From: a virus | Length of the DNA: 64,000 nt | Strand: one strand, 5' to 3' | Virus record (IMG/VR): IMGVR_UViG_3300036768_001490 | Location: 64,001-128,000 of that record | Shown: in pieces, positions 8,486 to 24,297 of the stretch | Position numbering within the stretch: position 1 is the first letter of the stretch | Layout: each line of letters begins with the position of its first letter | Notes under the pieces: generated by a model | What the model was told of the DNA's origin: nothing | Database searches by the model: none | The model's input: the letters and a program-made list of their open reading frames with translations, nothing else | Translations under genes and position numbers: made by a program

Positions 8486-11400
8486 TTACCAGCCAAAGGT
8501 CTCGCGGAACTGGCGTCTCCAGTGCAGGGGATTGAGCGCCGGCAGCGTTCTGCCGCCCGTGCCTGGAATGACCGCATTGCCTGTCAAATAGTCATCCCAG
8601 CCGGCCGCGGGACGCGAAAGAACGTCAACGATAAATTCAGTAGCATTGACAGCTCGGCGGAGGCCCTTGGTGTCCTTGGTGCCCTTCGCGTTCTCTTCAG
8701 CTAGCGCGCCAGCTAGAGCGTCCCTGACCAAGGTGGCCTCTTCCAGCATCTTCCCTCCCGTGAGCGGGTTCAGCGCTTCCTTGCGCTCCTCGTGACTGAA
8801 CGGGTTGATCATCTTGTGCCCCATCGCCATGTAAGTGAGGGACTGGGTGGGCGAAAGTTTGGAACTTTCTATGACAAGCTGGGCAGGCGTCTTGGTCTTG
8901 GCAATTTCCACATCGCGGATGAATTTCTCTTCCTGTTGGCTCAAACTTTCTCCTCTGGCCTTCTTGGCCTTGAGCCTCTCTGCTTCGGGGATGTCCTTTT
9001 CATGCAGTTGCTTCATCACGATCTTCTCGGCCTCCGTGGCAATGCCTTCCGCCTGCGCTGACATCGTCGTGCCGGCCGTGTGGATGTCCGCGACCGTCTT
9101 GGTAATGTTCTTAATCAGGTTCATGCTGCCTTCTGGGTTGTTGCTGTCCCGCTCAACGCGCGTGATCCCCTTGAACAGCCGGTGGAGCGAGTCGGCGACG
9201 ACGTTGCCCAGGGGGCCGTAATCCTTCGCACGCTCGTCTTCACTCAGCTGCAGTGCCGGCGTGAACGCGAAGGGGTCCACCGCGTTTCCACTCGCCAGCT
9301 CGCCTCGCCGGAGCCTGTCAGCCTGGTGTTTCCGGATGAGATTGCCAACGGCCGCCTGCGCCTCGAAGTGCTTGCCGATGTTCGACTCGGACGTCAGCTT
9401 GCTCTTGGCGGCGCCGTCGTCTGCCTGATCTTCGGACAGTGCCCGGTACAGGTCTTTGAAAAGGTTGTAACCCTCCACGCCCAGCTGGGCCCCTCCTTCC
9501 AGCATGATACGGCCGGTGTTGACGTGGTTGGAGCGAATGCCAAGTGCCGTGAGCAAGTTCATGCCCGGCTGCTGCCGCCACTTGTACAAGTCGAACAGGT
9601 CGGCCGTTCCCTGGATGGCCTTCTGGTTCTCGCTGCGGAACTTTCCCTCGGACGAGAGCAGCCGGTCCCAGCCGCCCTCTTGCCAGTCCTCCAGAATGTT
9701 GCTTCCGGCTTCGCCCAGGCCAGCGATAATAGCCGCAGGATTGACGACATATTTGCCTAGCCAGCCGGCCACGTTGAGCATCTTCGTGCCGCCGGACGTC
9801 AGTCCTCCCGCCGCGTTGAGGAGCCGAGCCGTAGTTCTTTCGCCCAGCAGGCGTTTCGCCACGTTGCTGGACGCTAGCCAATTCAGGGCCGTGCCGGTGC
9901 CTTGCATTCCACTGCCGGAAATCGAGGACAGCGCCTGCACGCCGGAAAACGGCAAGGACGCCAGGCTGACATAATTGTGCCACTTGAGCTGATTGTCGTC
10001 TTTCTTGCCTGCTGCCTCTGCATTATTGCTATTGTTTACGGCGGCGTCGCTATTGTTTACGACAGCATCTTCATGGCCACGGCCCAGGTCGAAGGCCAAG
10101 TAGGCCGGCGGCACAGCATACTGGTGGGGCGAGTGGGACGATTGGGAATACGGGTGGGGCAAGTGGGGCGATTGGGAGAAATCGTAGCTGAAGGTCCGCG
10201 GGCCGGTGACGTAGTCACCGTAGTCAGGCTGCTGCTGGCTGTTCTCGCCGGGACGTCCCGTCCCAGGCAGGTATCCTGGCGGCACCGGTCTGCCCTGTCC
10301 CTGCTGGCCTGGTCCAAAGGGCTGGTACTGGTACTGGCCGCGCACGTAGGGGCTCCGGCTGGTCAGGACATGGATCGCGTTCGGGTCCAGCAGGGAGCCG
10401 AAGCGGATGGCAGAGCCGACCAGGCCGCCGAAGCCAGAGTTGGGATCGTTCGGGTTGCCGCCGCCGCGGACAAACATGGCGGCCTGACGCGGATCGTCGT
10501 GCTGCCACATCATGGGTCTGCCCCGCGTGTACTCCCCCTGGTGCGGCGCGTACTGGTAGGGCTGGTACATGGTGGCGGGAGTGCGCACGACGCCGCGGAA
10601 CGGGTCTGGATTCCGGACAGAGGTTGGGCGGGTGGCCCCGGCGGTATGGGAGTTCCCTGCTGGCTGTGCCGCCGGCTTCGCCCCGCCGGAAGGATTCGCT
10701 CCGCCAGAGGCCGCCACCGGCTTGCTGCTGTCCTTGTTGTCGTCGGCGGCGGACTTGCCGAAGAACTGCGCCTCCGCCTGCCGCAGCAGGGCGTCCGCTT
10801 CCTGCCGCTGCGCTTCCTGGTCCCAGGACGACTTGTACCAGCCGCGGAAGATGCGGGACAGCATGCTGCCGCCCTCGTCGCTGCCGGCAGCTGCCGGAGG
10901 AGGTAAGTCGAGCGCCAGGCCGTCCGTGGCTACTAGCCGCGGTGCCGTCTTTCGCCGCGCCCCTCCCCGGGCGCTTTCCTCCATGCCGTCGGGAACGGTC
11001 CCCGGCTCCGGCTGACGTACCGGTCCGACCAGGCCGAAGTCCGAGGCCCTGGCCAGACCCGGCACGAAGCTGGTGCCGGACTCGTCCCAGCCGCGCCCCC
11101 GGTGGACGGCCTCCAGCAGGCCACCCTTGATGCCGGAGCCGTACATGCGCGCCAGGACGTCCGGGTCGTGCTGGAGAGAGTACATGCCGCGGATCATCTC
11201 GCCCTGGAACGGCGGCGGCTCGTCATGGACGACTACCCGCCGGATGCCGAACTGCTGAAGTTCCCGGATGACGCTGGGACGGACCCGGGTGCCGATGGTG
11301 TAGTGCAGCACCGGCTTCTCCAGGTACTTGCCGACCGCGCGGCGCACGTCCAGCTCCTGGTGGCCGGCGCGGGGCTGGTAGTTGTATTCCAGCGTGGCGT

Positions 11401-13372
11401 AGGGCACCACGTCGTCCGGCAGGTTCCCGCCGAACTCGTCCGTCAGGCGGACGTGGTTGATAAGGCCGCGGGCCAGGATTTCCACGTTGCGGCGGTTGAC
11501 CTTCAGCCCGGCCGACCGCATGGCGTCCGTGTAAGCCTGGACAAAGTAGCGGCGCCCCTCGCCGATGCCCTTGTGCTGCACGATCAGGTGTGGCTGCGGG
11601 ATACCGTCACTGATGACGTCACCGGCCTCGACCGTGTCGCCAGGACGGACCCGCAGGTTGAAGCCGGCGCCGACGTAGTGCCGGGTGCCGTTGATCCAGA
11701 CAAACTTGCCTCCGGCCGGAGCGTCCTCGATGCGCTCCACCGTGCCATCCTCGGTCGCGTGCGCTGCTCCGCCGCGGAACACCTTGGGCACCTGGATCAG
11801 CTGGTTAATGTACTGGAAACCGCTCACGGCCTTCTCACGTCCGGCCACGCCACCGCTGTGCTTGGCCGAAAGCTGCGCCTGCGACAGCGGCTCCGACAGG
11901 GCCTGGGCGGCGGTGAGGCCAACCTGCTCGCCGCGGCCAGGCAGAACGCCGCGTTCACGCACACCAACGTCCCGTGCGTAAACACCACCATCAGGACTGC
12001 CGCCCACCACCGGACTTCGCACAAGAATGCGAGCATGGCCTCTCCGCCGGATGTCCTTGAGAATCTTTGGCGTCAGCACCGTGTTCTTCCGGTACGGCCC
12101 CACGTCCTGAGCCAGCAGGGCGCCCTCGTTGTCCGGGTCGTCCACGTCCACGGGAAGTCCGCGCGGCGTCGGGTCGTCCCGCGGGTCTTCCTCGTCCACT
12201 ACCACCAGGCGGTGCGAGACCTGGTTGAGCTGCTTGCTGTTGGACACGACCATGCCGTTGGCCAGCACGAACAGGTGGTCCGGGTGGTCCACTTCGATGT
12301 CATAGGTCGGCCGCCAGCCGACTTCTTCCCGCCGCACCAGGCGGCACAGCAGGACGTGCCTGTCCACCGGCCGCCGCGGCTCCTCTCCGTACCCGACCCC
12401 GGCCGGGACAAGGGCCGGCTGCCGCGGCCTCGCCGCCACCAGGCGGAGGCCGGCAGCTGCCACCTGACGCAGCGGCAGCAGGAGGTAGGGACGTCGTCCT
12501 CCCGGCGGCGCTGCCAGGACACGGTGGTCCTCTGTCGCCTCGATGGTGATGGCGGCCCTGCCGGCGCGGAAGACGTACCGCCAGACCCGGCGGAGACCGT
12601 GGACAAACAGGGCCCGGACCCGCGTGGGGAACGTCCGTCCCCGCCGGTCGGCACCGAGGACAAGGTCGCCGGGACGCAGCTGCTCGATGGGGACGGAAGT
12701 CCCTTCCGGCCGGCACACCTGCGTTCCTTCCGCCAGGCACAGGAAACCGGCGTCCTGCGTGGAAAACTTGGTCGCCATGACGCCCTTGCGCGCCCCGTAG
12801 GTGCCTGCCCAGTATTCGACTGGCCGGTAGCCCTCGCTGTAGGACGACAGGATCGGCAGAGGCAGCACGTCGTCGCGGTGGTCGGCGAAGAGCAGGCCGG
12901 TGCCGCGCAGCTCCGCCAGGTTCATGGCGTTGCCGCGCGAACCGGACAGCACCTGGAAGGCCAGTGGGTTTTCCTCCCGCAGCGATTCCTGGTAGACCTC
13001 GTCTGGAATCTTCTCGGCCGCGCGGCCCACGGTCAGGACCAGCAGGTCGTTCCGCTGCCGGTCGGTCAGCCGGTCGTCGTCAAGGATCTTCTTGACCTTG
13101 GACCACAGTTCCCGTTGCTTCCGACGGGCAATCTCGGACTTGGCCATGTGCCGCAGGCCGAAGGAGAAGCCGCCCGTCTCCGACGCGGCCTGGCGGCCGA
13201 TGTCCGCCAGGTGCTTGCTAACGTCGCGGTATCGCTCCGTATGCTTCCGCGCCAGCTGGCGCAGCAACTCCGCCATGCCCTTCTTGTCCAGGACACGCTG
13301 GTAGTCGCGCAGGTCTTCTGGCAACGTCTCGTTGACCAGGAGCTGCCCCATGCTGGTGCGTAGAACTGGCAT
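8486..13372 (-). CDS. rpoC: RNA polymerase beta' C-terminal half (bridge helix, trigger loop) with mini-intein, fused to ~850-aa tail
   Basis: STQDAGFL/SKQL = bridge helix; GEQVGLTAAQALSEPLSQAQLSAKHSGG = trigger loop; NRRNVEILARGL; ATG 13372 just after upstream TGA. Confidence 0.9.
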   Translation of the reverse strand: MPVLRTSMGQLLVNETLPEDLRDYQRVLDKKGMAELLRQLARKHTERYRDVSKHLADIGRQAASETGGFSFGLRHMAKSEIARRKQRELWSKVKKILDDDRLTDRQRNDLLVLTVGRAAEKIPDEVYQESLREENPLAFQVLSGSRGNAMNLAELRGTGLLFADHRDDVLPLPILSSYSEGYRPVEYWAGTYGARKGVMATKFSTQDAGFLCLAEGTQVCRPEGTSVPIEQLRPGDLVLGADRRGRTFPTRVRALFVHGLRRVWRYVFRAGRAAITIEATEDHRVLAAPPGGRRPYLLLPLRQVAAAGLRLVAARPRQPALVPAGVGYGEEPRRPVDRHVLLCRLVRREEVGWRPTYDIEVDHPDHLFVLANGMVVSNSKQLNQVSHRLVVVDEEDPRDDPTPRGLPVDVDDPDNEGALLAQDVGPYRKNTVLTPKILKDIRRRGHARILVRSPVVGGSPDGGVYARDVGVRERGVLPGRGEQVGLTAAQALSEPLSQAQLSAKHSGGVAGREKAVSGFQYINQLIQVPKVFRGGAAHATEDGTVERIEDAPAGGKFVWINGTRHYVGAGFNLRVRPGDTVEAGDVISDGIPQPHLIVQHKGIGEGRRYFVQAYTDAMRSAGLKVNRRNVEILARGLINHVRLTDEFGGNLPDDVVPYATLEYNYQPRAGHQELDVRRAVGKYLEKPVLHYTIGTRVRPSVIRELQQFGIRRVVVHDEPPPFQGEMIRGMYSLQHDPDVLARMYGSGIKGGLLEAVHRGRGWDESGTSFVPGLARASDFGLVGPVRQPEPGTVPDGMEESARGGARRKTAPRLVATDGLALDLPPPAAAGSDEGGSMLSRIFRGWYKSSWDQEAQRQEADALLRQAEAQFFGKSAADDNKDSSKPVAASGGANPSGGAKPAAQPAGNSHTAGATRPTSVRNPDPFRGVVRTPATMYQPYQYAPHQGEYTRGRPMMWQHDDPRQAAMFVRGGGNPNDPNSGFGGLVGSAIRFGSLLDPNAIHVLTSRSPYVRGQYQYQPFGPGQQGQGRPVPPGYLPGTGRPGENSQQQPDYGDYVTGPRTFSYDFSQSPHLPHPYSQSSHSPHQYAVPPAYLAFDLGRGHEDAVVNNSDAAVNNSNNAEAAGKKDDNQLKWHNYVSLASLPFSGVQALSSISGSGMQGTGTALNWLASSNVAKRLLGERTTARLLNAAGGLTSGGTKMLNVAGWLGKYVVNPAAIIAGLGEAGSNILEDWQEGGWDRLLSSEGKFRSENQKAIQGTADLFDLYKWRQQPGMNLLTALGIRSNHVNTGRIMLEGGAQLGVEGYNLFKDLYRALSEDQADDGAAKSKLTSESNIGKHFEAQAAVGNLIRKHQADRLRRGELASGNAVDPFAFTPALQLSEDERAKDYGPLGNVVADSLHRLFKGITRVERDSNNPEGSMNLIKNITKTVADIHTAGTTMSAQAEGIATEAEKIVMKQLHEKDIPEAERLKAKKARGESLSQQEEKFIRDVEIAKTKTPAQLVIESSKLSPTQSLTYMAMGHKMINPFSHEERKEALNPLTGGKMLEEATLVRDALAGALAEENAKGTKDTKGLRRAVNATEFIVDVLSRPAAGWDDYLTGNAVIPGTGGRTLPALNPLHWRRQFRETFGW
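12239..12739 (-). mobile_element. Mini-intein (167 aa, no endonuclease) in beta' bridge helix
   Basis: CLAEGT start, ATEDH block B, TYDIEV block F, VVSN/S end; removal restores GFL-SKQL. Confidence 0.92.
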
Positions 13373-13374
13373 GG

Positions 13375-13794
13375 TCACTTCACCCACACCCTCTGGCCGT
13401 CAGCCAGGCGCAGGCAGCGCGACCGAGGGGAGAACAACCAGATGGTGATGCGCGGCTGGTTTGCCATGCATACCTCGCGGCAACGCCATACATGGTGCTC
13501 GTCCTGGCTGCTGGACACCAGCAACAGGACCACAGGCAGGCGTCGGGAGCGGGCGCCGTAATAGAGGGACTTACCCACTGCCTCGGCCCAGTCGGGTGCC
13601 CAGGCCACGGCGACGGCATGGTGAGGGGTCAGAAGGTCGATGCGCGTGCCGTCGTAGTTGCTTGCCCCGGCCTGGGCCGGCAGGCCGCTGGAGGTCAGGC
13701 TGGCTGCCAGGCATCCAGCCCAGTCCTCCTCTTCGGGAACGTTGCCGCCGGTCAGCAGGCGGCGCAGCCACGACCGGAAGTGCTGGAGCATCAC
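13375..13794 (-). CDS. Small restriction-endonuclease-like (PD-(D/E)XK) protein, probably degenerate
   Basis: DGTRIDLLTP..AVAVAWAPDWAEAVGKSLYY resembles recalled family DGTRVD..T..HAIEVDW..KWAEAIGQSLYY. Confidence 0.5.
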   Translation of the reverse strand: MMLQHFRSWLRRLLTGGNVPEEEDWAGCLAASLTSSGLPAQAGASNYDGTRIDLLTPHHAVAVAWAPDWAEAVGKSLYYGARSRRLPVVLLLVSSSQDEHHVWRCREVCMANQPRITIWLFSPRSRCLRLADGQRVWVK

Positions 13795-14678: not shown

Positions 14679-14960
14679 TCACTCGCGTGGACGGGGTCCA
14701 GCGATCAGCTGGGCTCCCGGGGGTGGGCCCGACAAACGGATGCGGTCCACCACGGTCGTCTGGGAGACGCCGAGGCGGCGCAGCAGGCGGTTAAAGTCCT
14801 CCATGCCCGCCATGCTGGCCGAGTAGGCGCCGTCCGGGCCGTAGTGAGCGGCGGCGAAGATCGGCGTGCCGTCGTCCGTCTCCAGGATGACCTGGCTGAC
14901 CGGAAGGACCAGTACCTGCCCGCGGCCAATGCCGTCGAGCGGGATGAGCTTGGCGATCAT
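14679..14960 (-). CDS. Hypothetical protein
   Basis: 93 aa; ATGA overlap with upstream gene. Confidence 0.7.
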   Translation of the reverse strand: MIAKLIPLDGIGRGQVLVLPVSQVILETDDGTPIFAAAHYGPDGAYSASMAGMEDFNRLLRRLGVSQTTVVDRIRLSGPPPGAQLIAGPRPRE

Positions 14961-15787
14961 GCAGCGCCGCCCTTTGCCGCCCGTGCCGCCTGGCGGAAAC
15001 GGGCAATGGCAGCCGCCCGGTCCTGCACGGCGCTGAAGCCACTTGTGTCAAAGGATGAGCCGTCAAAGGCGTGGCCGTTGCCGCGGTAGGCCCGGCGGTC
15101 ATGCGCCGGCTTCTCTGCCCCCGGCTTGCCCGCCGGCTGTATGCCCTCCAGGGGAGGAATGGGAGGGATCGCGCCCTCCTCGCCCCCTGCGCCGTCAGCA
15201 GACGGGTCGATGCCAGGCATGGGACCGCCCGTGGTCGAGGCGTGGGCCAGGTTCGTGAGGTCTTGCTGGGTGGCGACCATCTCCGAGGCAGGGATCTTGA
15301 TGCCGAGCTGGTCGGCGATGCGTGCCTGGATCTTCAGGATCGACAGCAGCACGGCGTTGGTGTCGATCTTGGGCTTGATGACGCCGCCCGTGTTGCCACC
15401 GTTGCCACCGTTGCCACCGTTGCCACCGTTGCCACCAGAACCGTTGCTCGACTGCATCTGCTGGATCTGCTGCTGGAGCTGACGTACCTGGTCCTGCAAG
15501 GCAGCCACGTCCGCGCTGTTGTCCGGCGACGGCGGTGGCGACGGCATGCCGCCCGCTGCCATCATGCTGGGGTCTGCCGGCATGCCGCCCGCTGCCATCA
15601 TGCTGGGGTCTGCCGGCATGCCGCCCGCTGCCATCATGCTAGGGTCTGCCGGCATGCCGCCCGCTGCCATCATGCTGGGGTCGCCGGCGGGCACGAAGGC
15701 ACGCTTGTGGAACCCGCCCAGGTTCCGCCGTGCCATCTTGAGGACTTCAAAATTGACCAGATGGTCGTCGCGCGTGGGGGCGCCCAT
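14957..15787 (-). CDS. Gly/Pro/Met-rich low-complexity protein with FHKRA site
   Basis: Start moved to ATG 15787 (GGAG SD); AAGGMPADPSMM x4, NGG repeats, coiled coil. Confidence 0.7.
   Translation of the reverse strand: MGAPTRDDHLVNFEVLKMARRNLGGFHKRAFVPAGDPSMMAAGGMPADPSMMAAGGMPADPSMMAAGGMPADPSMMAAGGMPSPPPSPDNSADVAALQDQVRQLQQQIQQMQSSNGSGGNGGNGGNGGNGGNTGGVIKPKIDTNAVLLSILKIQARIADQLGIKIPASEMVATQQDLTNLAHASTTGGPMPGIDPSADGAGGEEGAIPPIPPLEGIQPAGKPGAEKPAHDRRAYRGNGHAFDGSSFDTSGFSAVQDRAAAIARFRQAARAAKGGAA
15543..15686. repeat. 36-bp tandem repeat x4 (AAGGMPADPSMM)
   Basis: Seen directly. Confidence 0.92.
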
Positions 15788-15879
15788 GTGAAAGCTCCAT
15801 TTTTCGTGGTCACGTACCGTGTGGCCCAGTCTACCGTACCTTGCCGGGCGCACACCAGTCCGCTTCGTCCGCCGCCCCC

Positions 15880-16380
15880 CTACGACGCCCGCCGCGGCCG
15901 CCGGAGACGGCGCCACAGCCGGCGGAGCGGCCGGACGTAGTAGTGGCCGACGAAGCCGCGGACCAGGGGCCAGCCGAGAGCCCGGCGGACGTCGTTTTCC
16001 CAGGCCGTGATCGGGCACTCGGCCCGGCTGCACACGGACCAGATGATGGCGAAGCAGGCAGGAAAGGCCAGATACCACGGGGCGTAGAACGGGGCGACGC
16101 AGAAGGCGGCCGCGTTCGCGCCCACCAGGGCCGAGTGGAACAGCCAGATCGCGGCCCAGCGGAATATGAGCCACGTCCGCTGCCACTCCCGCTCCCGGAC
16201 GGCCCCCACCTCCTCCGCTGCCCGGCGCAGCATGGCCAGCGACTGCCGGAGCGAGTCGTTCGTGCTGGTCTGGCCCACGGCCTCGTCCAGGGCGGTAAAG
16301 AGACAGCGCAGGTCCGCGTCCGAAAGGTACTCCCGTGCCAGGGCCAGGATGTTGCTGGCCTCCTCGGTCGTTGTTGGCAT
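15880..16380 (-). CDS. Membrane protein, DUF2784-like
   Basis: Two hydrophobic helices then CPITAWENDVRR; GGGAGG SD. Confidence 0.55.
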   Translation of the reverse strand: MPTTTEEASNILALAREYLSDADLRCLFTALDEAVGQTSTNDSLRQSLAMLRRAAEEVGAVREREWQRTWLIFRWAAIWLFHSALVGANAAAFCVAPFYAPWYLAFPACFAIIWSVCSRAECPITAWENDVRRALGWPLVRGFVGHYYVRPLRRLWRRLRRPRRAS

Positions 16381-16381
16381 G

Positions 16382-18136
16382 TCAACCTCCCAGGATCTCG
16401 ACAGGGGTGTCCACTGTGATTTCACCGCGCCGATAGGCCCGGATGGCATCCTGGCGGGAACGGAACACGCGCGGGCGCTTCCTTGACACGGAGCGCCGCC
16501 GGGTGGACTCGTACAGCCCGCCCAGGTACTCCTGCCCCGGCATGTGTACCGGCGACTGGAAGTCCGCCGGCGAGAACAGGGACCGGCTGGGCAGCAGCCG
16601 GTCGTATGCCTCCTTCACCGCCTCCGGCGACGTCGGCACGTGGAACTGCATGGCGTCGCCGTCGAAGTCGGCGTTGAACCCCTTGGTCACGAGGGGGCTC
16701 AGGTGGATGGTGTTTCCGCTTACCAGCCGGGGGCGAAAGGCCAGGATGCCGAACTTGTGCAGCACGGGGGCCCGGTTGACGTACACGGGGCGCTCTTCCA
16801 TTTCCTCTTGCATGATGGAGCGGGCCAGCGGCGTCCGCTCCCGGACGTGGCGCAGGGCCTCGCGGATCGGCAGGCCGCGCCGCCGGAGCCGGCGGACGAT
16901 GAACTTGCTGTAGACGTCGAACGCCTGGTTCTCCGGGATGCCGATGGAGTCCATGTCCATGTCCGGGTCCGGCGTGATGACGGCCCGGCCGACGTTGTCC
17001 ACGGTGGTGGAGAGCAGCTTGCGCTGCATCGTGCCGAACTTGGGGGATTCTCCGAAGATGCTCTTCAGGATCCCACTGACGCCCTTCTCCTGGAGCTTGG
17101 GGTGCATGGGCTCGCCGAGACCCACGACGGCCTGGAAGGCGTGGTAGACGGCCAGGCGCTCGGGGCCCGCGTTCTTCTTGCCCACCTGCTTGACCATGTC
17201 GTTGTAGTTGCGGATGGCGTCCAGCAGCTCCTTGTACAGGTAGTTGGGGTCCGATATAAGCGGGATGCCCGTGTCTCCCAGCATGGACACGGGCCGGAAG
17301 GCAGGCGGCAGCACGGGCACCCGATGCAGCACCCAGTCGCGCGGGTGCAGGCCGAGCTTCTTGGCGCTGTCCAGGTACTGCCAGCGACGGATCGCCTCGT
17401 CCCGGTGGGAAGCGCGGCCGTACCGCCACTCCGCCCGGGCCTTGTCCAGCTCCTTGTCCAGGTCCAGCTGGTCCAGCGCCTTGGCCACGGCCTGGGGTCC
17501 GCTGCCGTACCCCGGCAGAGACTCGTCTCCGGCCAGCACCGCCTCGAACTTCTTCTGCGTCAGGCCCAGGATGCGGCGGATCGGCTCCTCCATGACCGGG
17601 TTCGGCAGCGGCTCGGGCAACTCGATGGCGGCCCAGCGCCGGCCGCCGTGTCCACCCGTCAGTTTGGGGTCAAACAGGCCGCCGGGGATGGGACTCATGT
17701 TGTCGTCGAAGCGCACCAGCTCCCCGGAACGGATGATGCGGTTGCCTGCCAGCTCCTTGACGTCCTGGTCCGTCAGGGCCATGACGTTTGCCCGGTGCCC
17801 GTCCGGGACGACATTGATGCCTGCCGCCTTCAGCTGGTGGACGAACTTATCGTACACGTAGGGCACCTTGGGCTTCACCGGCGTGAAGCCCAACATGAAC
17901 TGGAGCCAGAACTGTTCGTTCTTCTGTCCCCGGATGAGGCGGGCGTCCCGGAGCGTCTCCGTGGCCCCGTGGGACATCAGGGCGTTGACGTCCAGCATGG
18001 ACAGCCTCTTCGAGTTGCTGACGAGCACGCCGCAGACCGCGTACAGGTGGACGTCAGCGACCGTGATGTCGTAGACATCGGCCAGGCTGTCCCTGCCGGC
18101 AGACGGACAGTATGGCCGGACCTCCCTGACGCGCAT
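16382..18136 (-). CDS. rpoC: IntC + RNAP beta C-terminus + beta' N-terminal half with catalytic NADFDGD
   Basis: SKRLSMLDVNALMSHGA = GQRFGEMEVWALEAYGA; VPVLPPAFRP; NRAPVLH; GFNADFDGDAM; GGGAGG SD 7 nt upstream. Confidence 0.93.
   Translation of the reverse strand: MRVREVRPYCPSAGRDSLADVYDITVADVHLYAVCGVLVSNSKRLSMLDVNALMSHGATETLRDARLIRGQKNEQFWLQFMLGFTPVKPKVPYVYDKFVHQLKAAGINVVPDGHRANVMALTDQDVKELAGNRIIRSGELVRFDDNMSPIPGGLFDPKLTGGHGGRRWAAIELPEPLPNPVMEEPIRRILGLTQKKFEAVLAGDESLPGYGSGPQAVAKALDQLDLDKELDKARAEWRYGRASHRDEAIRRWQYLDSAKKLGLHPRDWVLHRVPVLPPAFRPVSMLGDTGIPLISDPNYLYKELLDAIRNYNDMVKQVGKKNAGPERLAVYHAFQAVVGLGEPMHPKLQEKGVSGILKSIFGESPKFGTMQRKLLSTTVDNVGRAVITPDPDMDMDSIGIPENQAFDVYSKFIVRRLRRRGLPIREALRHVRERTPLARSIMQEEMEERPVYVNRAPVLHKFGILAFRPRLVSGNTIHLSPLVTKGFNADFDGDAMQFHVPTSPEAVKEAYDRLLPSRSLFSPADFQSPVHMPGQEYLGGLYESTRRRSVSRKRPRVFRSRQDAIRAYRRGEITVDTPVEILGG
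18014..18136 (-). mobile_element. Split-intein C-fragment (IntC, 41 aa)
   Basis: MRVREVR...DVYDITVADVHLYAVCGVLVSN/S: blocks F and G, Asn then Ser+1. Confidence 0.88.
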
Positions 18137-18167
18137 GCTACGCCCTCCCTGGAGACCGCGCCGGACC

Positions 18168-21100
18168 CTAGCACTCCATCAGGTCGTCTCCCGCCGCCAG
18201 CTGGCACGCCAGCTTCCTGCTGCCATCTTGCAGCACGAACTCATGGTTGCGGGTGCATACCAGCGTGGCTCCGTCCGCCAGCTCGACCTCCACCAGCGTG
18301 GACGCGGGCACCCGGTAGTGGAACCAGTCCGTGACGGCGTACCAGCCTGCCTCCTGGCCCTCCAGGCCCCGCGCGCGGACGCGCAGAGGCAGACGTCCCT
18401 CCACCACCTGCCGGATCGTCCGCGGCCCCTGGTCCGTGTGCAACACGGTGTCGCCCAGGAAGCAGCCCATTTCCCCTCCCTTGGACGGGCTCTCGTCCAG
18501 GGAGTACGCGCCCCCGCCGCGGCCCTGGCCCTTGGAATTGCCGGACAGCATCGGCTTGCCGTTGCGACGGACATACAGCAGACCTGTCTCCATTTCCGCG
18601 CAGTAGACGATGCCGTTGTAGTCCTTGGTCCAGAAACGGCCCTCGCCCGGACCGGCCCAGGCATCGGTGCGCTCCGGCACCACGCGGCAGACCCAGGAGG
18701 GCAGGAAGTGGGAACTGGGCCCGGGCGGCCGCCGCTGCACGATGGCGCCAAGTCCCGCCCGGATGAACAGCTCCTGGAAATCGTCCGCCAGGCCCCGGGA
18801 CAGGGACACGTAGCCCAGGCGCCGCCCCGCCTCGTCCCTGCCGCAGCTAGCCAGCCAGGCGGCACAGGTCCGGCGCAGCACGTCCGGCGGCTGCTCCAGC
18901 AAGTGGCGTGGCAGGCGCTTGGAGCGGGCATGCCCGCCGTACCGCCGCAGGTGTTGCGCAAGAGGACGGTGCGCCAGGACGTAACCCTTACCGGGGACGT
19001 ACTCCCACGGCAGGGCCAGACGTTGCAGCAGCTCCTCCAGCGCCGCAGCCCGCGCCGGCCCGTCGCCCGGCTTTTGCCCACGGACGAAGAAGGTGACGTC
19101 CGCGCGCCGCGGCGTCACCCGGGCATGGCCCGCGCCGGCCCACCAGCCGACCAGCTCGGCGTAGTCCCCGCAGTCCATCTCCTGGCCGCACACGAGCAGT
19201 CTGGCAGCGCAGACCTGGCCATTCTCCACTGGCCAGCCAAACTGGGGCACGCGGAAGCGGCGGCCATGCACCTCCTGCGCCGGCAGCAGGGCGCACACCG
19301 GGTCGGGACACTGGCCCAGGTCCGCGTACAGGCGGTGGTTTCCCGTGACCAGGTAGTCGAGGTCGCGGCTCGTGAAGCCGTACAGGGTGCCACGGAAGGA
19401 AGCCCGGATGAGGCGCAGCGGCCGCTCGAACACCAGCCGGCCGCCACGCACCGTGGCCAGCTCGTCGTCGCAGCGCACCTGGGGCCAGGGCACCCAGCCA
19501 CGGGCAGTCAGGGCCTCCGTGGCGGCATCGAAGCACTCCGCCGTGTGGTGCAGCTTCATGAAGAAGCGGTTGCCGGTAGCGATCCCGCGGACCTTCATGT
19601 CCCTTTCCGGCCAGAAGATGTCCTCGGTGTCCTTCAGGCCGTGCCGCTCCAGCTGCCGCCGCACCCAGGCGGTCATGTCCTCCTCGCCCTCGAAATCAGT
19701 CACCTTGATGGGGCGTCCCAGCTTCCGGGCCAGCTTGCCCAGCATGGCCTCCGCGATCTGGGCCGGGTTGACACGGGTGATGACGCCGAGCGGGTTCAGC
19801 AGGACTTCCAAAGGCTCGCCGTCCTCGCCCCGCGGCATCAGGCTGTCTGGCACAATGGCGGCGACCACGCCCTTGTCCCCGTAGCGCCCGGACATCTTGT
19901 CGCCGACCTGCATTGGCTCGACGGACTTGACCACGACGACCGGCCCGCTCTTGCTCCAGACCACGTCGGTGACGACGCCCGGCTGGTGGTGCTTCCACAG
20001 CACGCTCTCGTCGTTGTACCCAGGCTGCTTCTTCCGGTGGACCTTGTTCTGTGCATGCTCCCGCTGCCGCGCCGCCAAGATGAGCGGGTCGCCGTACTGG
20101 ACGACCGTGCCCGGCTTGACCGTGCCGTCGTCGTTGATGGTGTCCAGCACCTTCCGCTCGAACTTCTGGGGAAAGAGGCCGATGAAATCGCGCTTGCCCA
20201 GCTTGTGTCGGTCGCTCACCTCCAGACTGTGCTGGTACATGTGCTCGGACGACATCTTCTTGGCCATGCCCTCGGAGATCACGACGGCGTCCTCGTAGTT
20301 GTACCCCAGGTAGGGCCAGTAGGCCACGCGGGCATTGACCCCCAGGGCCATCGCGCCGTTGTTGTCCGTGTAGTTGCTCCGGGCCAAAAGCTGGCCGCGT
20401 CGGAAGTTGTCGCCTGGTCGGACCAGGGGGATCTGGTGGATGAACGTCTTGCGGTTGAATGGATAGTTGTCGTACAGCTCGATCTCTTCCTTCCGGCCAT
20501 CCGCGTACTGGACCTTGATTACTCCGTCACGGACGTCGATGACCCGTCCGTCCGCACCAGCCTCCACTGCGCCAAGGTGCTTGCCGTACTCTTCCTCAAA
20601 AGATCTCTTCCCCTTGGACTCTGGTGTGCCGGATTGTACAAGCGGAGCCTCGGCGGCGATGAGAGGAAGGGCCTGCGTAATGTAGCGGCTGCCCATCGCC
20701 ACGCGCTGTCCCTTGACCATGCTTTTAAGCGGCACCAGGTTGCCCAGAGGGCTGAACGTGTCCTCGAAATGAGGGATGACAAAGTCGATGTCTTTCTTGC
20801 GCACATAGGACAGTTTGCCTCCCTTCATCACAGGCACGCGCTTGCTGTCCCAGCGGAGGACGTCCGGCGTGGCCACGGCCGCGTCGGCCAGGTCGCGCGG
20901 CCCCTTCCAGACCAGCTTTCCCCTCCGGTCGAGCAGCTGCACGTACAAGCTGCCGTCACTCCCCTTGCGCGCACCCCGGGCCACATGCAGGTCCACGCCT
21001 GCCCGGAAGCTGTTACCAGACCAGTGACCCGGAGTGCCGTCCCGGCGGACGTAGAGAAGTCCGCCCGGCACCGTGGCGCAGTAGACGGGGCCGTCGTAGT

Positions 21101-23258
21101 CCAGCCGGTAGTAGGACGCTGGCGATGCGCCCCATTCCTCGTCGCCAGCATAGAGGCGGACGCGGTGCCGGCGCCGCTGCCCGTCCGGCTCAGGACGCAG
21201 CACGCTGGGGATGCCCAGCGTGAAGGCCAGCAGGACCATCTGCTTGGCCAGGGCCAGGCTGCTAGACTGGAACTGGACGAACCGGCCGTGCCGGTCCTTC
21301 CTTCCACCGGCCAGCAGCAGGACCGCGTACAGGCGGCGGCGGGACTCCAGGCTGCCGGCCAGCAGACAATCCGGCAGCCTGCGGCCGTGTGGACCGTCCA
21401 GCTCCCGGCAGAGACCGGCCAGGCGCCTGTCCTCCAACACGAAGACCTGGCCGGCCGCGTCATACTCCCAGACAAGTCCCAGGCGCGTCAGCAGGGCGGT
21501 GAGCCGCGCGTGCTGGGAACGGTACGCTTGCGGACGGCAAGACAGGCGCAGCCTGTCCGGGTTGATGACGTCTTCCTCCTGGTCAGCCGTCCCGGCCGCG
21601 GCCGTGTACCAGCAGACCAGCTCCGCCCAATCCTCCGCCGACCCGGGCCGACCCGAGGTCCACTCCTCCCAGGCACCGTATAGATCATCGCCGCGGTAGC
21701 AGGGACCGCCGCCGAGATGGAGGCGGGGCCGGCCAAAGGCTGCCGCGGCCGTCTCTTCCTGGTAAGTCCCGTCCGCCTGGCCGCGCGGCCGCACCCACAG
21801 GCGATGGTCCGGCGTGACCAGATAGCTCAGCAGCCGCGTCCGCACACCCAGCAGCTTGCCACGGTAATGGCCACAGTGCAGCTGCGTGGGCCGGTGCCAC
21901 TCCACGGTGCCACCGACCAGGCAGGCCAGCTCGTCCTTCTGGGCCACTTCCGGCCACGCCTTCCAGCCGGAGCGAGTCATCACCTCGGTCCGGGCGTCGT
22001 AGCACTCCGGCGTGCGCAGCGGGTCGATGAAGCCCAGGTGCGACGGCTGCACGGAGCGGGCCTCGTCCGGAATGGAGTCGATGTTCGGGATGCCGCCCTC
22101 TCCCATGCGCGTGATCCGCGTCTGCTTGTCAAACACTTCCGCCGGGTTGATCTCCTCCAGCGCCTCTGCCAGGCCGCTGCCCAGCAAGACCTCCTCGATC
22201 TGAGGCGTCAGGGCACCGCTCGGCATCTTGTCCAGCGAGCCGGCCAGGGAGACCTTGCGGAACAGCTGCGCCAGGGTCCGGCCGTGGTCGCGGGCGATGC
22301 GCTCGGCGAACATGTCCTCGGGACCGAGGAAGACCTGGTAAGCCAGGTGGTCGCGGTCGTCCGGGTCGGTTTCCCGGCGGCTGACCTGGAGCAGCTTCTG
22401 CGTGGCCTTGAGGATGACCTCCTTGCTGAGCCGGTCATACGGCTGCCCCAGGGTGTGGCGGGTGACTTCCGGGTCCAGCTCCATCGCCTGGAACTTGGCG
22501 ACCAGCTTTTGCCGTTCGCTGCCCTCGTCCCCGTCCCGCTCGTTCTTCCGCAGCAGGCGGTCGGCCAGTTTTCGCATGGTCCCCCGGTCGGGATACTGGG
22601 CATTGGCGGCGTACAGATCGTTGCCCCAGTAGGCCCGCACCTCCCGGTCGGTGGCCCCCATAGCTTGCAGCAGCGGCAGTAGCGGCATCTCCGCCTGGCC
22701 CAGGCGGATCTTGAACAATCCCTTTTCTGGGTCCAGGAAGTAACGGTGCGAGACGCCCTTCCCTGGCAGCACGTTGACGTGGCTTTCCAGCTCCCCGTTG
22801 TCCTTGATGCGGGTGAAGATGCCCGGCCGCAGCCGTTGCTGGTGGCTGACCGTGTACTCGTTGCCCCGGTGGATGAACGTCCCCAGGCTGGACAGATAGG
22901 GCACGCGCGCGATGACCTGGGTGCGACGTTGTAGCTCCTTGCCAGTGGCCGAGTCCTCCAGCACCCAGGTGCCCTGCAAGCGCCGGGCCAGCGTGCCGCC
23001 CGTGAGAACGGCCTGCTTGCGCTGACGGCGAGAGAAGCGCTCCGGGTCGGCCCACTTCACGTCGGTCAGGCGCAGACGGTGCTTGCCGTCATCCAGCGGA
23101 GCAATGGACTGGGCGGCATGGAGCACGTTGTCGTAGAGGGAACGGCGCGTGGCATCGGTGTCGCCAAAGGCGCGCAATGCCGGCAGAGGTGACGGCGGAG
23201 CCGCGCCGGCGCCGGCGAGCACGGCGTCGGCCCTCGTTGGTGGCAGTAGCGACGACAC
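18168..23258 (-). CDS. rpoB: RNA polymerase beta subunit with two cis inteins and terminal IntN
   Basis: GTFIHRGNEY, DDRDHL, RSVQPSHLGFIDPLRTPE, GYNYEDAVVISE, GDKMSGRYGDKG, NPLGVITRVN; likely GTG start 23258 after AAGGAAGGGG. Confidence 0.93.
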   Translation of the reverse strand: MSSLLPPTRADAVLAGAGAAPPSPLPALRAFGDTDATRRSLYDNVLHAAQSIAPLDDGKHRLRLTDVKWADPERFSRRQRKQAVLTGGTLARRLQGTWVLEDSATGKELQRRTQVIARVPYLSSLGTFIHRGNEYTVSHQQRLRPGIFTRIKDNGELESHVNVLPGKGVSHRYFLDPEKGLFKIRLGQAEMPLLPLLQAMGATDREVRAYWGNDLYAANAQYPDRGTMRKLADRLLRKNERDGDEGSERQKLVAKFQAMELDPEVTRHTLGQPYDRLSKEVILKATQKLLQVSRRETDPDDRDHLAYQVFLGPEDMFAERIARDHGRTLAQLFRKVSLAGSLDKMPSGALTPQIEEVLLGSGLAEALEEINPAEVFDKQTRITRMGEGGIPNIDSIPDEARSVQPSHLGFIDPLRTPECYDARTEVMTRSGWKAWPEVAQKDELACLVGGTVEWHRPTQLHCGHYRGKLLGVRTRLLSYLVTPDHRLWVRPRGQADGTYQEETAAAAFGRPRLHLGGGPCYRGDDLYGAWEEWTSGRPGSAEDWAELVCWYTAAAGTADQEEDVINPDRLRLSCRPQAYRSQHARLTALLTRLGLVWEYDAAGQVFVLEDRRLAGLCRELDGPHGRRLPDCLLAGSLESRRRLYAVLLLAGGRKDRHGRFVQFQSSSLALAKQMVLLAFTLGIPSVLRPEPDGQRRRHRVRLYAGDEEWGASPASYYRLDYDGPVYCATVPGGLLYVRRDGTPGHWSGNSFRAGVDLHVARGARKGSDGSLYVQLLDRRGKLVWKGPRDLADAAVATPDVLRWDSKRVPVMKGGKLSYVRKKDIDFVIPHFEDTFSPLGNLVPLKSMVKGQRVAMGSRYITQALPLIAAEAPLVQSGTPESKGKRSFEEEYGKHLGAVEAGADGRVIDVRDGVIKVQYADGRKEEIELYDNYPFNRKTFIHQIPLVRPGDNFRRGQLLARSNYTDNNGAMALGVNARVAYWPYLGYNYEDAVVISEGMAKKMSSEHMYQHSLEVSDRHKLGKRDFIGLFPQKFERKVLDTINDDGTVKPGTVVQYGDPLILAARQREHAQNKVHRKKQPGYNDESVLWKHHQPGVVTDVVWSKSGPVVVVKSVEPMQVGDKMSGRYGDKGVVAAIVPDSLMPRGEDGEPLEVLLNPLGVITRVNPAQIAEAMLGKLARKLGRPIKVTDFEGEEDMTAWVRRQLERHGLKDTEDIFWPERDMKVRGIATGNRFFMKLHHTAECFDAATEALTARGWVPWPQVRCDDELATVRGGRLVFERPLRLIRASFRGTLYGFTSRDLDYLVTGNHRLYADLGQCPDPVCALLPAQEVHGRRFRVPQFGWPVENGQVCAARLLVCGQEMDCGDYAELVGWWAGAGHARVTPRRADVTFFVRGQKPGDGPARAAALEELLQRLALPWEYVPGKGYVLAHRPLAQHLRRYGGHARSKRLPRHLLEQPPDVLRRTCAAWLASCGRDEAGRRLGYVSLSRGLADDFQELFIRAGLGAIVQRRPPGPSSHFLPSWVCRVVPERTDAWAGPGEGRFWTKDYNGIVYCAEMETGLLYVRRNGKPMLSGNSKGQGRGGGAYSLDESPSKGGEMGCFLGDTVLHTDQGPRTIRQVVEGRLPLRVRARGLEGQEAGWYAVTDWFHYRVPASTLVEVELADGATLVCTRNHEFVLQDGSRKLACQLAAGDDLMEC
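18171..18464 (-). mobile_element. Split-intein N-fragment (IntN, 98 aa)
   Basis: CFLGDT start, CTRNH block B, LACQLAAGDDL, then TAG; no terminal Asn. Confidence 0.88.
18537..19535 (-). mobile_element. Intein (333 aa) with degenerate LAGLIDADG region
   Basis: CFDAATE...VTGNH...GLLYVRRNGKPMLSGN/S; removal restores KLHHTAE-SKGQGR. Confidence 0.92.
21012..22004 (-). mobile_element. Intein (331 aa) with degenerate LAGLIDADG region
   Basis: CYDARTE...VTPDH...GLLYVRRDGTPGHWSGN/S; removal restores RTPE-SFRAG. Confidence 0.92.
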
Positions 23259-23298
23259 GGCTTGCCCCTTCCTTGCCAAGTCACCTTCCCGTCCGCCG

Positions 23299-24297
23299 CT
23301 ACCGTGTCCGGCCGGACGGAGCGCGGCCATGTCCCCCTTCTGTCCCGGCAGGCACTGGCGGCACCATGACCGGCTCGGGAATGGCGTAGATCGCGTCCGG
23401 CTGCTGCTCGAACAGGCGCCGCTGCTGGCGACGCAAGGCGTTCTCCAGGAGCTTCCGCCGCGAACGCTTCTCTATCCGGTCGTACACGATGGCCCCCGTC
23501 AGCAAGGCGCTGAGGCCGGCATAGGCCCCATAAATGCCGGGAAGGCGCTCCAGGAAGCCGGGAATGCGATCCATGAGGCCGCCGATGTCCAGTGCCTCCT
23601 TTTCCAGGGAAGTGCCCAGCAGCTGCTGCATCCTGCCCCACAGTGCGTCGAGCGCCTTGCCGACCTTGACCATGTCCGGCTCGTCCTTCTCCTGGCCACG
23701 GTCGGCGGCCTTCTTGGGAGAAACGCCAGGCAGCGACTCCAGGGGCTCGTCGTACTGCGCGAGAATGGCCTGGCGGAACTCACGCCGCGCCTTGCTCAGC
23801 TCCTCCTCGTTTTCCCGCCGCCGCTGCTCCCGGAGCAGGTTCGTCAGGCCACCGTAGCCCAGGCCGAAGCCGCCGAGCGCGGCGGCGAACATGGCGGGGT
23901 AGTACCAGGGGAAGCCACCCTTGGAACGGGGCGGCGACACCTCCACCTGCACCTTCTCCACCTGCCCCTCCTTCACCTGCCCCTGCGGGGACTCCTCCAC
24001 CGGGTAGGGCAGCGGCAGCAGGGCAGGCCCCCAGCGCCGACGCTTGCGCTGCTTCGAGCGCATCATGTTGTACATGCCCACCGCGCTGGCGCCGGCGGCG
24101 CCGATGCCCAACGAGGCAAGGCCCAGTTTGCGGATGTCCTGCAATGCCTCGTCCTGGAGCTTGGACAGCTTCAGCCGCTTCACCGCGTTGACGAAGTTCT
24201 GCACGTCGTCCGGCGTGACATTCATCCCTTGCTTACTGGCGATTTCTTTCACCTGTGACGGGGAGAGAAAATTCGCGTTGCTGCGGAGGCCAAACAT
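23299..24297 (-). CDS. Three Gly-zipper helices with K-x-A sites (putative virion membrane-active protein)
   Basis: 332 aa; LGIGAAGASAVG, ALGGFGLGYGG, GAYAGLSALLTG; PKKAA, LEKEA. Confidence 0.75.
   Translation of the reverse strand: MFGLRSNANFLSPSQVKEIASKQGMNVTPDDVQNFVNAVKRLKLSKLQDEALQDIRKLGLASLGIGAAGASAVGMYNMMRSKQRKRRRWGPALLPLPYPVEESPQGQVKEGQVEKVQVEVSPPRSKGGFPWYYPAMFAAALGGFGLGYGGLTNLLREQRRRENEEELSKARREFRQAILAQYDEPLESLPGVSPKKAADRGQEKDEPDMVKVGKALDALWGRMQQLLGTSLEKEALDIGGLMDRIPGFLERLPGIYGAYAGLSALLTGAIVYDRIEKRSRRKLLENALRRQQRRLFEQQPDAIYAIPEPVMVPPVPAGTEGGHGRAPSGRTR

Follow-up and report, generated by a model that had tools for sequence, protein, structure and literature searches.

The window analysed here is a stretch of 64,000 nucleotides (bases 64001–128000) from the 182,719-bp IMG/VR virus record IMGVR_UViG_3300036768_001490, for which CheckV estimates a completeness of 84%. 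Its G+C content is 58–71%. Pfam models identify three genes for a multisubunit RNA polymerase (RNAP) in the window, all of which reside on the minus strand. The first is an open reading frame (ORF) for a β protein of 1720 amino acids (18168–23330; RNA_pol_Rpb2_6, 4e-49). The second (16382–18136; 584 amino acids) matches Rpb1_2 of the β′ subunit (7.7e-28) and carries the NADFDGD motif at residue 488, and the third (8486–13387) encodes the C-terminal part of β′ (Rpb1_5). At the boundary between the first two genes lies a candidate split intein. Its N-terminal half (IntN) forms the end of the β protein, and its C-terminal half (IntC) forms the beginning of the next protein.

The arrangement at this boundary is compact. 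The body of the β gene, which includes two contiguous inteins, serves as the N-extein (18465–23330, minus strand) and ends in KGGEMG. This motif is followed by CFLGDT...TRNH...GDDLMEC and a TAG stop codon (18168–18170). IntN therefore comprises 98 amino acids (residues 1623–1720 of the β ORF; 18171–18464), beginning with Cys1-Phe, carrying TRNH as its block B motif and ending in the acidic tail GDDLMEC. A spacer of 31 nucleotides (18137–18167) separates the stop codon from the next gene, which is out of frame and is preceded by the Shine–Dalgarno sequence GGGAGG (18144–18149), located 7 nucleotides upstream of an ATG at 18136. The second ORF opens with a 41-residue IntC (18014–18136) that has a basic start (MRVREVR), block F residues VYDITV..H and the block G sequence VLVSN. 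IntC ends in ...VYDITVADVHLYAVCGVLVSN and is followed by SKRLSMLDVNAL. The C-extein (16382–18013; Ser+1 codon at 18011–18013) comprises 543 amino acids, in which the last ∼100 residues of β are fused to the N-terminal half of β′. These positions confirm a first-pass annotation of the DNA, which had described a naturally split mini-intein with a 98-residue IntN, a 31-nucleotide gap, the GGGAGG sequence and a 41-residue IntC.

A TGA codon occurs in the frame of the second gene, 14 codons upstream of its ATG. Consequently, the two frames can be fused only by an insertion or deletion within ∼9 nucleotides (18171–18179), as had been pointed out in the same annotation. The spacer at 18137–18167 was examined for a terminator, a sigma-70 promoter and an unusual RNA fold, and none was found. 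The two genes are therefore probably co-transcribed. We conclude from the sequences described below that the multisubunit RNAP of this large uncultured phage very likely contains a true class-1 intein, split in the canonical manner, whose halves would associate and trans-splice β to the N-terminal half of β′.

The exteins of related phages reveal where the intein has been inserted. Of 80 related loci retrieved from IMG/VR, 77 carry a single ORF of ∼1460–1500 amino acids that runs uninterrupted through ...MKLHHTAESKGQGRG...PAKGGxxG[SA]KR[IV].[ML]LD.... The intein thus interrupts, precisely and in frame as is typical of class 1, a sequence (KGGxxG[SA]K) that these relatives read through. When the four intein parts are removed from the two window proteins, 1501 amino acids remain, a length close to that of the intein-less relatives. 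Similarly, β and the N-terminal half of β′ form one chain of 1525 amino acids in gp206 of Salmonella phage Arash. The product predicted in the first-pass annotation, β joined to the NADFDGD half of β′, is supported by the Rpb1_2 match and the position of this motif.

The start of the C-extein failed as a direct query, and the site was therefore mapped on bacterial β by way of an intein-less relative (L007). Alignment of L007 to a solved bacterial β subunit (8x6f_C) places the break between the two glycines in GGKAQFG|GQRFGEMEVWAL. The proposed equivalence of the KGGEMG junction to bacterial GKAQFG|GQRFGEMEVWAL is upheld by this alignment. Judged by the same comparison, the insertion site is among the most conserved core motifs of β, GG(K)xxxG|GQRFGEME.

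The same split is present in six independent loci. Three of these are IMG/VR loci (L004, L005 and L006), whose exteins are 63–71% identical to those of the window. The other three, two from Logan (L084 and L085) and one from an ENA assembly (L086), were located through cluster representatives. In all six, the IntN halves end and the IntC halves begin at positions homologous to those of the window. Their β genes end in ...GDDL[LM]E. and a stop codon, with two to six extra residues before the stop in L085 and L086, and their downstream polymerase genes begin with M[KR][IV]....P[YF]. The IntN sequences are 40–52% identical to that of the window. The gap between IntN and IntC measures 285–1913 nucleotides, and each gap contains a further ORF. 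Seven loci from independent genomes, including the window, therefore encode the halves in two distinct genes, the first with a stop codon and the second with a start codon of its own.

A profile search that exhaustively covered 1.84 billion cluster representatives yielded 980 matches at E ≤ 1e-3. At least 17 of the representatives are RNAP β proteins or fragments whose last ∼95–117 residues correspond to IntN and directly follow PAKGGxxG. At least six others, from other metagenomic phages (P0018, P0064, P0065, P0106, P0116 and P0144), carry contiguous inteins at the same site. One of these inteins is 163 amino acids long and the others are 368–388; the contiguous alleles end in ...VYD[IF]TV..TH.YCAG..LVSN, followed by SK. 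In a further three representatives, an intein begins at this position, and its C-terminal junction was not located. LAGLIDADG_2 was detected in all three contiguous alleles that were scanned with Pfam (one of 387 amino acids, one of 377 and one whose C-terminal junction was not located). Read together, these sequences indicate that the site holds an allelic series: a full-length form bearing an endonuclease, a mini-intein and two split forms, one with a gene between its halves and the other, seen in this window only, with no more than the 31-nucleotide spacer. The intein is thus not unique to this phage and belongs to a family that is widespread in metagenomes. No copy of the split intein was found in the 50,697 deposited phage genomes of INPHARED, where the nearest inteins are ∼30% identical and reside in ribonucleotide reductase genes of Campylobacter phages.

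Two observations from these searches concern other phage genes. In Campylobacter phage CPt10 (NC_027996.1, near 119087–119362), an intein with 30% identity is located at the end of a fragment of ribonucleotide reductase for which the annotation notes a disruption, and it may be another unrecognized split intein. In addition, a related IntN is found at the C-terminus, or no more than ∼15 residues from it, in two other proteins (P0133 and P0078), one a T4-like portal protein and the other polymerase-like with a UDG domain. These sequences suggest that further split inteins exist in other phage genes.

The residues that class-1 inteins use for splicing are retained throughout. Cys1-Phe2, which supplies the N-terminal nucleophile, is invariant in an alignment of four IntN sequences and in all 17 representatives. 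The T and H of the block B motif T-x-x-H, which reads TRNH in the window, are kept in seven of seven loci. In IntC, V-Y-D-I-T-V, H30, N41 and S+1 are invariant, providing the Asp and His of block F, the terminal Asn and the +1 nucleophile. The entire catalytic set (Cys1, T-x-x-H, block F Asp and His, terminal Asn and Ser+1) is thus kept in the seven loci. A profile built from the four IntN sequences shows significant similarity to solved inteins, including the Mtu RecA mini-intein (6.8e-5) and Npu DnaE (2.4e-4), and the IntC profile can be aligned with the blocks at the very C-terminus of the DnaB, DnaE and DnaX inteins.

Some features bear on a possible pairing of the halves. In most loci, the IntN tail is acidic (DD.E) and the IntC start is basic (K/R-rich), as read from the sequences. 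A two-chain structure model of IntN and IntC reached a score of 0.82 (0.82, 0.85 and 0.82 in three runs), whereas the highest of three controls scored 0.02. At least 94% of contacts are shared between runs, and the predicted local distance difference test (pLDDT) value of the partner is at least 78. In the calibration of this method, the mark was reached by 58 of 80 solved complexes and by 2 of 110 mismatched pairs. Structures of split-intein complexes have been solved, so that the score reveals a likeness to these and is no proof of binding between the two halves.

Several observations weigh against a functional split intein. The Pfam intein model Intein_splicing scores below its cut-off on IntN (E 0.018), and the matches of the single IntN sequence in the PDB are weak (E about 0.02). 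With IntC as a single sequence, a search of the PDB gave chance matches only, and a word-seeded search returned the window's own protein alone. The success of the complex model may reflect likeness to, or memory of, solved split inteins. The window is also the sole locus of the seven that lacks an intervening gene, so that its spacer is a one-off. Finally, class-1 inteins commonly, although not obligatorily, have His as the penultimate residue, and this residue is Ser in all copies. Because the single-sequence scores are weak, the split intein is best assigned on sequence grounds to a divergent lineage. The Ser-Asn end, which the first-pass annotation had called atypical, proves not to be so: the IntC chain of Npu DnaE (4lx3_B), the most thoroughly studied split intein, ends in ...IASN and aligns to the end of the window IntC.

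The most serious competing explanation is that the halves still bind each other and no longer splice, such that the RNAP would be a noncovalent complex whose parts are joined through an inactive split intein. The missing penultimate His fits this possibility, as does the fact that the complex model supports association only. We nevertheless consider it distinctly unlikely. All residues required for the chemistry are kept even though the intein halves have diverged to 40–57% identity, and the Ser-Asn end is shared by Npu DnaE, a fast split intein. Moreover, without splicing, β would retain a domain of 139 amino acids in the middle of its most conserved core motif. Since the break falls in a core motif, the unspliced enzyme is unlikely to work.

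A second possibility is that an assembly or sequencing indel in 18171–18179 has broken a contiguous mini-intein of ∼150 amino acids. One base in this 9-nucleotide stretch suffices to fuse the frames, and a contiguous allele of 163 amino acids exists in another phage. The first-pass annotation had set a 1-nucleotide indel in advance as the test of its claim, and the answer is provided by the six independent loci, which come from different assemblies, stop and start at the exact same residues and carry a whole gene between the halves. With halves that are 285–1913 nucleotides apart, a one-base error cannot explain the split, and the sequences thus indicate that it is not an assembly error. A good Shine–Dalgarno sequence 7 nucleotides upstream of the ATG likewise argues for a true start of translation. 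An indel in the window is accordingly very improbable.

The split intein is one of four inteins in this polymerase. Two contiguous inteins interrupt β on the minus strand, one of 331 amino acids (21012–22004) inserted precisely at RTPE|S and one of 333 amino acids (18537–19535) inserted precisely at HHTAE|SKGQGRG. Both junctions are uninterrupted in relatives, and L004, L005 and L006 lack both of these cis-inteins. The two resemble each other at their termini (C[YF]DA.TE... and ...LLYVRR.G....SGN|S) and give a weak endonuclease signal (LAGLIDADG_3, E 0.035). Just 24 extein residues separate the 333-residue intein from IntN. A contiguous mini-intein of 167 amino acids (12239–12739, minus strand; CLAEGT...MVVSN|SK), also with a Ser-Asn end, resides in the ORF for the C-terminal part of β′ (8486–13387). 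Comparison of the split intein with this mini-intein and with the two large β inteins showed that they are not close paralogs. As judged from these sequences, the enzyme would need four splicing events: two in cis in β, that of the split intein and that of the mini-intein in the β′ C-terminal part. That four inteins crowd one enzyme, and that the two large ones match endonuclease models weakly, might suggest a decaying, nonfunctional polymerase gene overrun by mobile elements, an explanation that is barely credible given that the ORFs are all intact across >8 kb, that the four insertions are all precise, that the polymerase motifs are kept and that no second copy of the split polymerase gene was found in the 182.7-kb record.

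Some further peculiarities of these polymerase genes were recorded. Between the two β′ gene parts of the window is an ORF (14957–16186, minus strand) in which DPSMMAAGGMPA occurs four times in tandem and GGN repeats form a run. Its one match, a weak one, is to phrog_2231 (E 0.0012), a PHROG without an assigned function. The C-terminal ∼800 amino acids of the β′ C-part gene (window 8486–11000, minus strand) form a long extension with a high content of Gly, Pro and Gln, which has no family match and is unusual in a polymerase subunit. Among the relatives, L008, L009, L069 and L011 have a junction-bearing ORF that starts just 473 or 143 amino acids upstream, indicating that β is broken elsewhere. 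In Vibrio phage D181 (L003; OZ196140.1, 2241–7755), the homologous polymerase gene is divided between two ORFs and the cut is not at the intein site. Between these polymerase ORFs are two tiny ORFs and a gene annotated as a free-standing homing endonuclease.

If the element is a functional split intein, as we favor, its operation can be outlined as follows. The first gene would yield β with two cis-inteins and a C-terminal IntN, and the second would yield IntC followed by the end of β and the N-terminal half of β′. The halves would then pair into a Hint fold, drawn together by the acidic IntN tail and the basic residues at the beginning of IntC. In the chemistry expected for this class, Cys1 would form a thioester, Ser+1 would attack this thioester and Asn41 of IntC would cyclize. 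The intein would thereby be released, leaving KGGEMG-SKRLSMLD within a single β–β′N chain of 1501 amino acids.

The origin of the split can be considered in the same terms. The split form probably descends from the contiguous, LAGLIDADG-bearing inteins that occupy the same site. The small gene found between the halves in relatives was either lost from the phage of the window or never present in it. Because the IntN sequences have diverged to 40–52% identity, the split is evidently old. A quick maximum-likelihood tree built on the C-extein groups the four IMG/VR carriers with two loci that have no intein at this site, in a six-member clade with full support. The split intein may have a single origin.

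The intervening gene of the six relatives, termed here ORF X, was examined separately (L004:4091–6004; L005:5720–6004; L006:5600–6004; L084:9350–9736; L085:8738–9070; L086:8340–8636). It is small and fast-evolving, encoding 90–637 amino acids between IntN and IntC, and at four of these six loci the IntC start codon and the end of X overlap by 4 nucleotides. The predicted proteins have an Ala-rich N-terminal helix, a variable middle rich in Pro and Ala and a C-terminal motif resembling F/W..R..RY. Searches against Pfam, PHROG and Atlas gave no family match, the versions share no BLAST-level similarity with each other and no copy is detectable in the record of the phage described here. One version of 90 amino acids contains neither His nor Cys, and a nuclease is therefore unlikely.

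In fractured genes as defined by Dassa et al. (2009), a homing endonuclease gene lies between the intein halves. Here, the halves are separated by the 31-nucleotide spacer, and ORF X of the relatives matches no endonuclease family. The first-pass statement that an intervening endonuclease gene is absent is thus correct for the window, where the spacer leaves no such gene. It does not extend to a lack of any intervening gene in the family, since the relatives do carry one, though without an endonuclease signature. One could imagine that the order β-IntN / X / IntC-β′N represents a new kind of fractured gene, in which a non-nuclease passenger replaced the homing endonuclease and the split times or gates RNAP assembly rather than being a neutral scar; the window would then be the minimal form that is free of X. 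We regard this more elaborate scenario as rather doubtful.

If splicing occurs, production of the phage RNAP hinges on a post-translational ligation plus three cis-splicing events. Transcription would then join replication and packaging as functions that are fractured by split inteins. The natural series of alleles at one site could be used to study how inteins become split. Furthermore, the diverged split inteins with Cys1 and Ser+1, whose IntN sequences are 40–52% identical to that of the window, are candidates for orthogonal ligation tools.

A full-text literature search, which had most subscription journals outside its scope, yielded engineered split-intein polymerases and contiguous RNAP inteins but no RNA polymerase with a naturally split intein. 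This outcome agrees, within that scope, with the statement in the first-pass annotation that no RNAP example was known. Contiguous inteins have been described in the second-largest RNAP subunits RPB2, RPA2 and RPC2 of eukaryotes and viruses (Goodwin et al. 2006, PMC1635734), and the intein of the window resembles them in being placed in the most conserved motifs of the subunit. It shares the GG..G|SK site and the ...VYDITV..H.Y....LVSN end with the contiguous phage LAGLIDADG alleles (P0064, P0116, P0018, P0106 and others). In contrast to the contiguous RNAP inteins, which are single-chain and cis-splicing (163–388 amino acids in the phage alleles), the intein of the window is broken into two genes.

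The phage and metagenomic fractured genes that contain split inteins encode gp41, NrdA, NrdJ, IMPDH, DnaE, ligase and terminase (Dassa et al. 2009, PMC2677866). The polymerase of the window is similar to these in its phage or metagenomic setting, in the adjacent extein genes on the same strand and in the intein halves located at the break. A gene is present between the halves in the relatives of the window, and the window itself resembles the gp41-7 locus, which has no endonuclease between its halves (PMC2677866). RNA polymerase, in contrast, is not among the hosts reported there, and ORF X of the relatives has no Pfam or PHROG match and is unlikely to be a nuclease.

The closest mechanistic parallel is found in the cyanobacterial DnaE inteins (Npu and Ssp; PDB 4lx3, 4qfq and 1zd7). 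The earlier proposal that the break position and fragment sizes match natural split inteins such as DnaE is well founded: both systems have the canonical split position, with halves of ∼100 and 36–41 amino acids. They also have in common Cys1, T-x-x-H and block F VYDI.V...H, and the C-terminal half of Npu DnaE, ending in ...ASN, has the same penultimate Ser. The similarity in sequence is detectable by profile only (E 2.4e-4). The +1 residue is Ser in the window and Cys in DnaE, and the host is RNAP β rather than the α subunit of DNA polymerase III. Whereas the DnaE halves are encoded at distant loci, those of the window are adjacent and probably co-transcribed. On this comparison, the element is a canonical split intein with an unsurprising proposed mechanism, residing in a host protein for which we found no such description in the literature.

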